Source of the DNA: Deltaproteobacteria bacterium | Lineage (GTDB): Bacteria > Myxococcota > Kuafuiibacteriia > Kuafuiibacteriales > Kuafuiibacteriaceae | Assembly: GCA_040218735.1 (NCBI GenBank) | Contig: JAVJQW010000023.1 | Span: forward strand, 256,001-320,000 | Direction of reading: 5' to 3' | Length of the DNA stretch: 64,000 bases | In this document: in pieces, positions 17,743-23,250 of the stretch | How positions within the stretch are numbered: position 1 is the stretch's first letter | How the letters are laid out: each line of letters begins with the position of its first letter | Program-made: the position numbers and the translations under genes | Notes under the pieces: generated by a model | The model's database searches: none | What the model saw: the letters and a program-made list of their open reading frames with translations, nothing else | Told to the model about the DNA's origin: nothing

Positions 17743-17800
17743 TAGGATCTTTCGTCACACCTAGGTGACGGAAAGTGTCCCCGCCGGGCACTCATATACG

Positions 17801-20368
17801 ATGAACACCTGGATCGGGTCGCCGAAGACCGCCGCCACGTACGCGCTGACGCTCCTGGGCCTCACCGCGACCACACTTGGCTGCGACGACACCGGTCTCA
17901 CGCAGCTCGAGGGCAAGCTGGTGTTCGACGAGCTCGTCGACTTCGGTGACGTCCAGGTCGGTATCGAGAAGACGCTCTACCTGGAGCTCACCAACGAGGG
18001 CGGCGCGGTCGTCACCGTGGACGACGTCGAGGTCGACGCGACGATCTCCGGTTCCCGCTACCAGTTCGAGATCGACGACGACCCCTTCGACGTACGCGCG
18101 GGCGACGGTTCGCAGCTGCGCATCAAGTTCCGGCCCTTCGAGGCGATGGACGAACCGGCGGACTCGATCGTGAAGCTCGTGACGGAGGCCGAGGCCTTCG
18201 AAGTCACGCTCCGCGGTCGCGGCGTGGCGAGCGGCCTCATCGTCGAGCCCAACCCCGTCGACTTCGGCTCCGTCCTCCTCGGGAGCGTGGAGACGATGAA
18301 CGTACAGGTCACCAACGCGCTCTCGGAGTCGATCGAGCTGTTCACGAACGTGCGCGGCGGCGTCATCGACGTCGAGGTCACGGCCGGCACCGGCATGTTC
18401 GACGTGCAGGCGACCGCCGAGTCCGACGGCTCTCTCGGCACGTTGGATCCCGGTGCCTCGATCACGCTGCCGGTGCGATACGTGCCCTCGCAGATCGGCG
18501 AGGGTCGCGGCGACCGCGCGCGGTTCGTGCTGTCGAACTGCGACTTCGAGCTGTGCGAAGTGGAGGTGACGCTGATCGGGCGCGGGACGGACTCGGCGCT
18601 GACGTGTGCGCCGGAGTCGTTCGACTTCGGCGCGATCAACCCGGGGCGCACGCGCACCGCGACGATCACCTGCGAGAACTCGGCGAACGATCCGATCGAG
18701 GTGCAGCGCGCCTCGCTCGACCTCGTCTCGGCGCCGGAGTTCTCGGTGATGCCGATCTCCGTGGGGACGATCCGCCGCGGCGAGACCTTCGACGTCGCCG
18801 TGACGTTCGCTCCGACCGCAGCCACCCTCGGCGCGAGTGTGATGGGTACGCTCGTGGTCGAAGCGGCGAACCAGGACGGCGCGCCGCTGCGGCCTTCGCA
18901 AGTCACCTTGCTCGGCGCCGGCGGAGGGCCGGCGGTGGTCGTGCAACCCGACTTGCTCAACTTCGGCATCGTCGCGGTGCAGACCACGCACACCAAGCGG
19001 CTGCTCGTGACGAACGTGGGCTACGACGACCTCGTGGTGTCGAACGTGGAGCCCGACGTCGCGGGCACAGGCGCGTTCTCGGCTTCGCCGACGACGTTCG
19101 TGGTCGCGCCCGGCAACGCGCAGATCCTGGACGTGACGATCGAGCCGCAGGTCGACGGGATGGTGGAGTCGACGCTCCGACTGACGACGAACGACCTGTC
19201 GGATCCCACGCCCGAGGTCGTGCTCGTCGGCGAGGGCATCACGCTGCCGCCGTGCGCGTACACGGTGACGCCGCCGAACATCAACTTCGGCAACGTTCCC
19301 CTCTCGGAGGCGCCGTTGCTCGGCTTCCGCGTCGAGAACGTCGGCAACGACGTGTGCCTGATGAACGACGTCGACTTCGTCCCCCCGCAGACCGCGACGC
19401 CGGCGCCGTTCACGCTGGTCGACGGTCCGGTGACGAGCGCGATCATGATCGCGCCGGGCGCGTTCCACGACGTCCCGGTGCAGTACCAGCCGTCGCGCAT
19501 CGGCACCGACACCGCGACGGTCGGCTTCTACATCTCGAGCGTGACCAACTCGAACCCGGTCGTCCCGCTGTTCGGCGTGGGTGAGCCGCTCCTGGAGGTC
19601 ACGTGCCCGGCGACGGTCACCACGGCGGTCGGCACGCCGGTGTCGCTCGCGGTCACCGGCCGCGTCGCGGGCGCGAACATCACGGGTTACCAGTGGAACA
19701 TCGTGTCGAGCCCGGCGGGCGGCGCCGGCACGCCGGGGCAGTGGACGCCGAACCCACCGACCGCCGCGACCGAGGACTTCCTCGCGCTCATCGTCGGCGT
19801 CTACGACATCCGCGTCGACATCTTCGACGACGTCGGCCGCACCGCGTCCTGCGTGACGCGCGTGAACGCCCTCGGCGAAGGCCTCGTCGCCACGCTGCGT
19901 TGGAGCGGCAACGGCGACCACGACCTGCACGTGCACAACCCGGCGACGACGGTGCCGTGGTTCACGTCCCCCGACGACTGCTACTACTCGAACCGCACGC
20001 CGATCTGGGACACCGGCTTCGGCGCCGGCTTCGGCCCGAACCCGGAGCTCGACGTCGACAACACCTCCGGCTTCGGCCCGGAGAACACCCGCGTCAGCAC
20101 GCCGGTGATCGGACAACCGTACACCGTGGCGGTGCATCACTACTCGAGCGCGTCGGGCACCACGGCGACCGTGGAGATCTACTGCGGCGGCGTCGCGACG
20201 CCGACGCAGGTCTTCAACTCGACGACGTTCACGGGCTCCGCGTCGGGGAACTGCTCGGCGAACGAGTTCTGGAGGGTGGCGACCGTGACGTTCACGTCGG
20301 CGTCGACGTGCATCATCACGCCGATCGATACGTATACGCCGAGCTCGCAGGCCTGCACGATGTTCTAG
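17801..20368 (+). CDS. Large surface lipoprotein with multiple Ig-like (choice-of-anchor D/ASH-type) domains and YfaP-like C-terminal domain
   Basis: Lipobox TLGC; five repeats beginning DFGDV/DFGSV/DFGAI/NFGIV/NFGNV; C-terminal LRW..DHDLHV...DCYY...LDVDN..GFGPEN. Confidence 0.78.
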   Translation: MNTWIGSPKTAATYALTLLGLTATTLGCDDTGLTQLEGKLVFDELVDFGDVQVGIEKTLYLELTNEGGAVVTVDDVEVDATISGSRYQFEIDDDPFDVRAGDGSQLRIKFRPFEAMDEPADSIVKLVTEAEAFEVTLRGRGVASGLIVEPNPVDFGSVLLGSVETMNVQVTNALSESIELFTNVRGGVIDVEVTAGTGMFDVQATAESDGSLGTLDPGASITLPVRYVPSQIGEGRGDRARFVLSNCDFELCEVEVTLIGRGTDSALTCAPESFDFGAINPGRTRTATITCENSANDPIEVQRASLDLVSAPEFSVMPISVGTIRRGETFDVAVTFAPTAATLGASVMGTLVVEAANQDGAPLRPSQVTLLGAGGGPAVVVQPDLLNFGIVAVQTTHTKRLLVTNVGYDDLVVSNVEPDVAGTGAFSASPTTFVVAPGNAQILDVTIEPQVDGMVESTLRLTTNDLSDPTPEVVLVGEGITLPPCAYTVTPPNINFGNVPLSEAPLLGFRVENVGNDVCLMNDVDFVPPQTATPAPFTLVDGPVTSAIMIAPGAFHDVPVQYQPSRIGTDTATVGFYISSVTNSNPVVPLFGVGEPLLEVTCPATVTTAVGTPVSLAVTGRVAGANITGYQWNIVSSPAGGAGTPGQWTPNPPTAATEDFLALIVGVYDIRVDIFDDVGRTASCVTRVNALGEGLVATLRWSGNGDHDLHVHNPATTVPWFTSPDDCYYSNRTPIWDTGFGAGFGPNPELDVDNTSGFGPENTRVSTPVIGQPYTVAVHHYSSASGTTATVEIYCGGVATPTQVFNSTTFTGSASGNCSANEFWRVATVTFTSASTCIITPIDTYTPSSQACTMF

Positions 20369-20382
20369 CCCGCTGACGCACC

Positions 20383-20437
20383 GCTGACGCAGTCAGCCGG
20401 CGCCCTTGAACTTGAACTTGCCCTTTACCTTGCCCTC
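20383..20437. repeat. Left arm of 55-bp inverted repeat
   Basis: GCTGACGCAGTCAGCCGGCGCCCTTGAACTTGAACTTGCCCTTTACCTTGCCCTC matches the reverse complement of 20893-20947 at 52/55 positions. Confidence 0.93.
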
Positions 20438-20785
20438 GCGGCCGACGGCGAGACTCGTGAGCATCTTCACGATCTCCAACAGCAGCGCTCGTCCCTCGTC
20501 GAGCGGCGCGTGGTCGTCCAACAACTGACAGCAACGGACGGTGTCGAGGATCGCCGCCGACTCCGTCGCCGAGCGCCTCGCGATCCGATAGAAGCGGCGC
20601 TTCTCGGCCGGAGCGAACTCGCCGGCTCCCTCGGCGATGTTGTTGGCGATGGAGGTCGACGCGCGGTGAAGCTGGTCCTTCAGCGGCCCGAAGCCTCGAA
20701 TCGTGGCGGTGATTCTATGGGCGAGCGCGACGAACTCGATCGTGACCCGGTAGACGTGGAGCCTCTCGTGATCGAACTGTTCCAT
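20393..20785 (-). CDS. Four-helix-bundle protein (23S rRNA intervening sequence protein/Avd-like family)
   Basis: FDHERLHVY, LKDQLHRASTSIANNIAEGAG, RRFYRIARRSATE, IVKML; C-terminus runs into the left inverted repeat. Confidence 0.9.
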   Translation of the reverse strand: MEQFDHERLHVYRVTIEFVALAHRITATIRGFGPLKDQLHRASTSIANNIAEGAGEFAPAEKRRFYRIARRSATESAAILDTVRCCQLLDDHAPLDEGRALLLEIVKMLTSLAVGREGKVKGKFKFKGAG

Positions 20786-20892
20786 CCGCTCCGGATGCGT
20801 GGGTCGACGGTGATCGGCAACGTCTGCGTGATTGGAAATCGTTCAGGAGGCCTGAAGCTCGGCGCGCGCAGCGGTGGGGTGCCGCTCCGCGG

Positions 20893-20947
20893 GAGGGCAA
20901 GGTAAAGGGCAAGTTCAAGTTCAAGGGGCCCGGCTGACTTCGTCAGC
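20893..20947. repeat. Right arm of 55-bp inverted repeat
   Basis: GAGGGCAAGGTAAAGGGCAAGTTCAAGTTCAAGGGGCCCGGCTGACTTCGTCAGC. Confidence 0.93.
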
Positions 20948-20952
20948 CTGGG

Positions 20953-23250
<2,298 letters not shown>

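Follow-up and report, generated by a model that had tools for sequence, protein, structure and literature searches.

A repeat-armed four-helix-bundle gene cassette outside ribosomal RNA that differs between strains and is probably mobile

How does a gene from a family met in intervening sequences (IVSs) of 23S ribosomal RNA (rRNA) and in diversity-generating retroelements (DGRs) come to lie, alone between long inverted repeats, in the gap between two convergent protein genes? The question is raised by a 590-bp cassette in a 64-kb stretch of contig JAVJQW010000023.1 (the window, in which all coordinates are given) of a Kuafuiibacteriaceae genome (G000; 11.6 Mb, 68.8% GC, 70 contigs). The cassette consists of an end hairpin, five to six hexamers, a single four-helix-bundle gene and the mirror image of these ends. 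At this one chromosomal site we observe a natural series: the cassette in three versions, and one allele without it, the break points lying at a defined 16-bp hairpin. What the locus adds is this allelic series, together with twins in the same family that are borne by insertion sequences (ISs). Full-text literature searches, including searches by family accessions, returned no description of repeat-armed four-helix-bundle cassettes outside rRNA, most subscription journals lying beyond their coverage. The route by which rRNA IVSs that bear an open reading frame (ORF) pass from one species to another, and the function of their S23p protein, are named as open questions in the passages of PMC4990558 that treat them. 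Both become testable with one 130-aa protein and a 35-nt repeat, to which relatives add IS-borne forms with intact ends, and the cassette offers an unexplained gene family a testable way to spread.

We favour, at roughly even chances, the explanation that the cassette is a non-autonomous passenger, which a transposase acting in trans set into a TA/CTAG site and which fold-back at the end hairpins has since emptied, removed or exchanged. The 590 bp would likely owe their position to a transposase encoded elsewhere, and insertion at TA(G) would set the cassette against stop codons, where it should be harmless. The arms would fold back while the DNA is single-stranded, and the interior could then be deleted or exchanged at the palindromic end hairpins, which double as direct repeats, leaving gene-free shells or a solo hairpin. 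The protein would be a passenger and not the cutting enzyme. It is likely a five-membered ring, which may bind its own ~five hexamers as single-stranded nucleic acid, an idea modelled on TRAP.

The cassette and its alleles

The original prediction, made from the letters of the window, placed inverted arms at 20383-20437 and 20893-20947 around one gene and its 107-bp leader. Arm comparison agrees: 52 of 55 positions are identical, with a perfect 35-bp part (20403-20437 and 20893-20927). A repeat search extends the arms to 58 nt at 93% and ranks them as the longest inverted pair within 19000-22500, where no pair of long direct repeats was found. The outer part of each arm is a palindromic hairpin (GCTGAC-GNA-GTCAGC), the inner part an array of five to six hexamers. 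A 7-bp direct repeat links the 3' half of the left hairpin with 20942-20948. As had also been described, the cassette spans the gap between two convergent genes (ORF 17765-20368 on the plus strand and ORF 23250-20953 on the minus strand), each flank begins TAGCCC when read inward, and the TAG is in each case the stop codon of the neighbour. The enclosed ORF (20785-20393, minus strand) does run into the left arm, reading through the array to give the tail GKVKGKFKFKGAG and stopping within the left hairpin. Its leader has GGAG just 3 nt ahead of the ATG, and no sigma-70-type promoter was found there. The window gave no Rfam match, and the cassette lies between two protein genes and thus outside any rRNA gene. 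The parts are listed below; X2, X3, X4, X5, X11, X12, X17 and X19 are the eight of 22 sequencing runs whose assembled contigs, which drop rare variants, were used for the strain comparison.

20366..20368, plus strand: TAG stop of the left neighbour; outer boundary and possible remnant of a TA/CTAG target duplication (sequence; stop-codon statistics)
20372..20382, plus strand: 11-bp partial tandem copy of the left hairpin half; not in X3, X4 or X5, with a similar copy in the cassette-free allele of X19
20383..20398, plus strand: left terminal hairpin GCTGAC-GCA-GTCAGC (palindrome 20383-20397), with its GNA triloop on the inward strand; holds the TGA stop of the ORF (sequence)
20403..20437, plus strand: left hexamer array of CTTGAA/CTTGCC units, ~5.8 units; codes for the C-terminal tail of the protein
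20393..20785, minus strand: gene for a four-helix bundle of 130 aa in the IVP/S23p family, with the Avd fold (profile matches to PF05635 and TIGR02436; structure matches)
20786..20892, minus strand: leader, 107 bp; partly replaced in X12 (sequence; X12 contig)
20893..20927, minus strand: right hexamer array, a perfect inverted copy of 20403-20437 (arm comparison)
20933..20948, minus strand: right terminal hairpin (palindrome 20933-20947), whose minus, inward strand reads GCTGAC-GAA-GTCAGC (sequence)
20953..20955, minus strand: TAG stop of the right neighbour; outer boundary (sequence)
17765..20368, plus strand: left neighbour, 867 aa, with Ig-like choice-of-anchor D domains; host gene outside the cassette (profile matches)
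20953..23250, minus strand: right neighbour, 765 aa, glucose/sorbosone dehydrogenase with a cytochrome c-like domain; host gene outside the cassette (profile matches)

X2 carries a near-identical version (8 differences in 514 nt inside vs 15 in 979 nt of flank, no difference in rate), and two further, diverged cassette versions occupy the site between flanks that are 96-99% identical. In X3 and X4, which come from one study, the flanks are ~99% identical (10 differences in 1001 and 9 in 977 for X3), while inside the cassette X3 has 37 differences in 334 nt against 10 in 1001 flank nt (p 5e-15). There, 20401-20512 (112 nt) is exchanged for 118 other letters, divergence beginning past 20400. X12 has 55 differences in 398 nt inside vs 27 in 756 in the flank (p 8e-10), and 79 nt of its leader and arm are exchanged for 101 other letters. 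The matching protein of X3, P0005, whose contig has the same length of 15694 nt, ends in GAGAGA, and the corresponding other hexamer is read from a loose end at the right arm; both arrays therefore appear to have changed together, with the hairpins retained. Among the differences listed, 14 of 20 (X3) and 17 of 29 (X12) of those within the gene fall at third codon positions, and this bias in the sequences suggests selection on the protein. Coverage in X5 is fragmentary, and X11 and X17 cover the site in pieces only and show nothing either way.

The original prediction proposed to look for an empty-site allele. In record 21 of X19 (977 nt, depth 14; flank differences 20 in 367 and 10 in 99) the cassette is absent, 20366 is joined to 20942 by 25 other letters, and one GAA-loop hairpin is retained. 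The join lies in the 7-bp direct repeat made by the 3' halves of both palindromes. In GTDB relatives no syntenic empty site was found, both flanks together being matched in 0 of 19 family genomes. The cassette had further been proposed to be a discrete unit, mobile or invertible. The first part stands, and mobility is probable in view of dispersed sisters, the cassette-free allele, exchanged interiors and IS-borne relatives, whereas inversion is unsupported, the orientation being unchanged in both contigs that bridge flank and gene (X3 record 9, X12 record 10).

Arm copies, hairpins and stop codons in G000

The 34-nt core of the arm occurs in 38 copies in G000 at up to 7 mismatches, and control patterns occur 0 and 0 times. 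These 38 arms comprise 14 inverted pairs that enclose 44-167 nt and no gene, 8 single arms and one gene-bearing pair, which is the cassette studied here. A repeat unique to this locus was thereby rejected. Looser searches add pairs with other hexamers, two hairpins ~20 nt apart (C54:58558, C denoting contigs of G000) and a solo hairpin between TAG and CTA at C27:20706; solo hairpins are scarce, with two or three among 29 matches. Many of these arms abut genes. With gene ends called by a codon model at a score of at least 0.3, 17 of the 38 arm ends have no such call, and at the remaining 21 the stops are 16 TAG, 3 TAA and 2 TGA. TAG or TAA thus ends 19 of 21 genes at arm ends vs 27% of 731 long ORFs genome-wide (TAG/TAA/TGA 148/49/534; p 1.8e-9). 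Hairpins of the form C-GNA-G with a stem of at least 4 bp are present on the inward strand of 17 of the 38 ends and on the other strand of none, and in 0.7% of random 40-mers. The GNA loop is carried by six different stems, the first four pairs being fixed by the selection and the copies being kin. GNA triloops are described as very stable in DNA in the relevant parts of two sources (PMC3201870, PMC13037366), and a related tetraloop mini-hairpin as much less stable in RNA in one of them (PMC13037366). The strand-specificity of these triloops (17 vs 0 of 38 ends) speaks for single-stranded DNA rather more than for RNA.

Such hairpins recall doublets of repetitive extragenic palindromic sequences (REPs) that form hairpins (REPINs) and are mobilised by REP-associated tyrosine transposases (RAYTs). 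An alternative explanation is accordingly that an HUH transposase of the Y1, RAYT-like kind moves the inverted, hairpin-tagged ends by cut and paste in single-stranded form, and that this copy has taken on a cargo gene. As far as the accounts in PMC3733652 and PMC6006769 go, the likeness includes short hairpins, inverted doublets past stop codons, singlets as decay products and other ISs within the repeat, and flanking ORFs often receive their TAG stop from REP termini (PMC3733652). The arms of G000 are likewise extragenic and multicopy, with inverted doublets, singlets and solo hairpins just past stop codons, and with inward-strand loops on six different stems. G000 also has five Y1 transposase genes (C21:261781, C58:38714, C21:77699, C29:100618 and C24:83881). 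No REP-like flanks were found at these five genes, however, and the cassette hairpin lies within 1.2 kb of none of them. No single tetranucleotide precedes the hairpin on its 5' side (CTAG 8, GTAG 8, ATAG 1 and TTAG 1 of 38 ends, GTGG not being counted), whereas REPs have GTAG/GTGG 0-2 nt from the stem in the part of PMC6006769 that defines them. The cassette thus differs from REPINs in having neither this fixed tag nor a repeat-flanked Y1 gene, and the gene that it encloses encodes a four-helix bundle. As relatives use DDE elements, too, we regard a REPIN-like origin as unlikely. Four of the five Y1 genes are closely related and have in common a short AT-rich upstream motif.

A third explanation takes up an idea of the original prediction and places the function of the arms in RNA: read-through transcripts from either neighbour would fold the 55-bp stem, which would be cut by RNase III or would terminate transcription, the cassette would be retained for this role, and the DNA differences would reflect ordinary recombination and slippage. 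The whole cassette region does fold into one long stem (-308.7 kcal/mol, z -8.1; 0 of 20 shuffles as good), and the arms abut gene 3' ends. The same plan is seen in the helix-45 IVS of the Coxiella burnetii 23S rRNA, which, in the sections of PMC4990558 that bear on it, has a 28-bp terminal stem, adjoining heptamer repeats, S23p of the same gene family inside and excision by RNase III. Further points of likeness in that account are the sporadic distribution and a deletion-prone gene. The cassette differs in lying outside rRNA, between two protein genes, and in having dispersed gene-free sisters. Against a role in RNA are the GNA triloop, a DNA motif whose tetraloop relative is much weaker as RNA (the portion of PMC13037366 on mini-hairpins), the absence of a U-run terminator at both cassette ends and the absence of the cassette in one strain. 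Dispersal, TAG targeting and IS-borne copies would be left unexplained. We consider this the least probable of the explanations weighed here.

G000 holds a second family of four-helix cassettes, with two divergent genes (C66:239660-241270, also the starts of C13, C33, C43 and C70), long GGA(T/C)TC-type hexamer arrays and TAG/CTA ends; several copies break the assembly. We rejected inverted arrays in the C66 cassette as doubtful, as its long arrays are mainly direct by eye and the inverted score is only 14.5. The strongest PF05635 match of the genome (125.6 bits, C39:37223-37516) is changed at its 5' end, and short inverted repeats of the GCTGGC/GCAGCC type lie on either side of it.

Homologues, IS-borne relatives and the search for an enzyme

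The design recurs among homologues. We examined 40 homologous GTDB loci, many of them titled Myxococcota, Polyangiaceae or Kofleriaceae, of which 30 have both flanks of at least 200 nt. An inverted repeat between the upstream and downstream flank (score at least 18) is present in 16 of these 30 (13 of 17 near-full matches) and in 0 of 109 shifted windows. The inverted hexamer arrays for which the original prediction proposed to test are indeed borne by homologues. Period-6 arrays stand on both sides in 14 of 30 loci vs 0 of 109 shifted windows. The hexamer sequence varies among loci, and array length has a median of 5.1 units (range 3.5-8.7 in 40 arrays, the lower end being set by the threshold). 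Stand-alone cassettes are the common form. The original prediction had named, as a finding that would count against it, an abundant REP-like repeat unlinked to the gene family; with 38 copies the repeat is indeed genome-wide and REP-like, yet it is linked to that family. Chance or artefact as the source of the pattern was rejected on the counts in control patterns (0 and 0) and shifted windows (0/109) and on the presence of the cassette in other strains.

Among 40 related genomes the protein is matched in 10, with the most matches in G006 (104), G022 (35) and G003 (26). In G001, of the same genus and 75% complete, the hairpin is found beside other hexamer-like units and the gene was not matched. 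In G022, two four-helix genes that converge and are enclosed by GCGGGA-type arrays make up a multicopy cassette (L030, L036, L083-L088, L denoting loci), and no terminal repeat was found beyond the arrays among the loci compared. At L102:1785-2861 a four-helix homologue adjoins a tyrosine integrase with a Phage_int_SAM_4 domain, possibly in an integron. AT-rich metagenome contigs (L152, L154, L155, L160) have long intergenic CTTGAA/CTTGCC hexamer arrays, the four-helix gene being undetected in the DNA examined.

In two relatives, G003 and G006, the gene and array travel within IS5-type and IS1182-type ends. The family names IS5, IS1182 and IS630 are used here for the respective Pfam sets. In G003, both ends of one IS are present at 13 of 17 loci examined, with CTAG on both sides in 10 of the 13 elements. 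Four of these are long forms (1367-1385 bp): in L077 an open 279-codon DUF4096/DDE transposase frame lies ahead of the gene, in L073 the transposase is in two frames, and the single long form that was translated and scanned has an open IS4/5-type DDE transposase. Nine are short, transposase-free forms (477-506 bp), in which two copies of the array-bearing (right) end enclose the gene, that is, the same plan as the cassette of G000. In G006, whose end motif occurs 120 + 126 times, 39 elements chosen by their ends alone have CTAG on both sides in 34 cases and lengths of 477-2141 bp. They carry remnants of a DUF772/DDE transposase, and each is without part of the transposase or the passenger. The four-helix gene is absent from 9 of the 39 and intact-like in 9; it is therefore not needed in cis. 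Among the 150 of 383 candidates that were scored in G006, none matched the 481-aa transposase query over its full length. In G023 and G032 the gene adjoins DDE_3 and DUF4096/DDE transposases, and one end of the arm family has 14 nt in common with a CTAG-bounded end in L120.

In G006 (L169-L207) a single IS1182-type element that carries a four-helix passenger is present in ~120 copies. The 39 examined are all internally deleted, nearly all to different lengths and with retention falling from both ends, which is unusual for an IS family. Other insertion elements lie in or against hexamer arrays and the 3' end of the gene in G003 (L069, L079) and G006 (L051, L181).

Several observations weigh against a passenger moved in trans and later gutted at its hairpins. 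Five transposase queries found no cognate transposase with these ends in G000. A search of 301 genomes of the phylum with a 19-nt pattern of the end yielded only single matches in 5 of the 300 others, of which the one within the genus was examined, and no partner, and two metagenome scans gave 0 matches and then 12, all coding matches or unrelated arrays, again with no partner; a profile search run without a positive control found no four-helix gene at these metagenome matches. Transposase fragments read by eye in L110, L117, L120 and L123 were rejected, as they have no transposase Pfam match. Among the 40 GTDB loci a Pfam transposase lies within ~1.5 kb at 2 and a tyrosine integrase at 1 (150 of 154 filtered ORFs). 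At the cassette itself the candidate target duplication, CTAG / CTAC, has one mismatch. The outermost bases vary among copies, as does the spacing from TAG to hairpin, unlike the ends of fresh ISs. The proposed ring on about five hexamers has to reckon with the two-gene cassettes of G000, whose arrays are much longer. A related interior is common to 8 of the 14 shells and none resembles the interior of the cassette (z <= 2); the shells are therefore not simple deletions of this copy. The two closest shells reach only 0.86 in global alignment, from which we conclude that the arm family is old. Finally, the X19 allele without the cassette comes from a single contig in a single run, and other contigs of that run have gene copies. 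We read it as a loss and not as a pre-insertion site because the end-hairpin sequence is kept, and the solo hairpin may instead be a pre-existing target site.

The partner of a trans-mobilised cassette could be missing from G000 because the assembly is broken at repeats into its 70 contigs. Besides its IS1182-type element, the genome has at least two more repeat families bounded by CTAG, all with ends unlike those of the cassette, so CTAG-targeting enzymes have acted there. The IS1182-type element was rejected as the partner, as its ends differ.

These relatives bear on the comparison with mobile insertion cassettes (MICs), MITEs (miniature transposable elements with inverted repeats) and transporter ISs. 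In the excerpts of PMC3129680 and PMC3184786 that describe them, these have inverted ends around a transposase-free passenger and gene-free miniatures. Like them, the cassette has terminal inverted repeats with no transposase between them, and G003 and G006 have full ISs with a passenger, transposase-free derivatives and CTAG duplications. Filled and empty alleles are both found, the empty one (X19 record 21) keeping a solo hairpin. The cassette differs in having ends with an inner tandem-hexamer array and a GNA hairpin, in having variable termini, and in that its module of passenger and array occurs with unrelated transposase families, no cognate transposase having been found in G000. Overall, the cassette resembles a MIC in the way it works and, in appearance, an rRNA IVS placed outside rRNA; it has neither the tag nor the transposase of REPINs, and it belongs neither to DGRs nor to rRNA IVSs.

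The four-helix-bundle protein

The assignment of the ORF to the IVP/Avd-like family is upheld by PF05635 (E 3.6e-17; 62.9 bits against a cut-off of 33.8) and TIGR02436 (E 1.3e-18; 67.2 bits against a cut-off of 24). The predicted model (pLDDT 89.5) has four helices only (10-28, 33-53, 59-85 and 93-114) and a disordered tail. Its closest structures are Xcc0516 (2gsc; Z 18.1, root-mean-square deviation (rmsd) 1.9, 111 residues aligned, phmmer E 1.7e-7) and BT_0352 (2rld; Z 16.5, rmsd 1.2, 103 aligned). Avd follows (4dwl and 8ub7; Z 13.9, with rmsd 2.5 and 114 aligned, and 13.2), and unrelated bundles rank below it at Z 13.1 and less. Avd has the same fold, but identity is 9-10% and no reverse transcriptase (RT) gene lies beside any of the eight PF05635 matches of G000. 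The genome has five RT genes, the nearest RT-family gene being ~188 kb off on the same contig. The statement of the original prediction that no rRNA or RT lies nearby thus holds, and a DGR or retroelement was ruled out for want of avd-RT adjacency and of a nearby RT.

Across 63 sequences 21 residues are invariant, including R41, S45, N49, E52, E56, K62, Y66, R67, R71, S72 and E75, and conservation extends to the basic patch K62-R71; Xcc0516 has Leu in place of Y66. It is a homopentamer according to the structural passage of PMC4990558, and Avd is described as a pentameric, positively charged, RNA-binding barrel in the portion of bioRxiv 10.1101/2023.10.23.563531 that treats it; the S23/IVP and Avd families are linked in part of PMC10053308. 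A dipeptide-repeat C-terminal tail is present in 83 of 119 homologues and in 0 of 119 mid-protein controls. Tails such as GSGSGS and GTGTGT, an annotation oddity, are explained by the arrays, of which they are the translation.

Might the protein itself drive mobility? Its ring would hold on to both arrays and, unaided or together with a host enzyme, promote both excision and re-entry at the hairpins of the ends, with solo hairpins as targets and IS-borne copies as secondary captures. It is the sole gene in the cassette, most armed homologues have no transposase between the arms, and the 35 matches of G022 come without a terminal repeat beyond the arrays in the loci compared. Different versions at one site are bounded by hairpins, and a crossover within the hairpin 3' half accounts for loop orientation in the filled and empty alleles. 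The 21 invariant residues and the third-position bias among the differences listed (14/20 and 17/29) are further points in favour. On the other side, no nuclease or recombinase fold is among the best structural matches of the model, the otherwise invariant Y66 is Leu in Xcc0516, and the gene is missing from 9 of the 39 G006 elements and intact-like in only 9. Solo hairpins, the proposed targets, are scarce in G000, and the Coxiella gene is decaying and probably not expressed, as far as the passage on it in PMC4990558 goes. We hold this explanation to be quite improbable, and the passenger cassette mobilised in trans remains the one that we favour.

A broader proposal, which we also think unlikely to hold, is that IVP/Avd-fold genes mark a distinct class of mobile cassettes working on single-stranded DNA. 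A pentamer would read about five hexamers per end, exchange would occur at GNA mini-hairpins without an enzyme in cis, and the module would ride on IS5-, IS1182- and IS630-type transposases or integrons. ORF-bearing 23S IVSs would then be copies that landed in rRNA, and Avd a member recruited by an RT.

Other repeated elements occur around the arms of G000. One, with short subterminal inverted repeats and an unassembled middle, interrupts a hexamer arm at two loci and is seen at the ends of C33 and C23 and the starts of C9 and C54; we presume it to be IS110/IS1111-like. Record 4 of X11 appears to have an uninterrupted arm joining the flanks of the C23 end and the C9 start. The ends of C8, C13, C21 and C56, and also C64:201871, hold an element of ~170 bp that has TAG/CTAG ends and long inverted repeats at its termini. 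A ~80-bp two-hairpin repeat bounded by CTAG has several dozen copies on many contigs (C46:99445, C61:110606, C14:53385), often in tandem and often against the ends of the IS1182-type element, and one copy lies within the arm at the start of C9.

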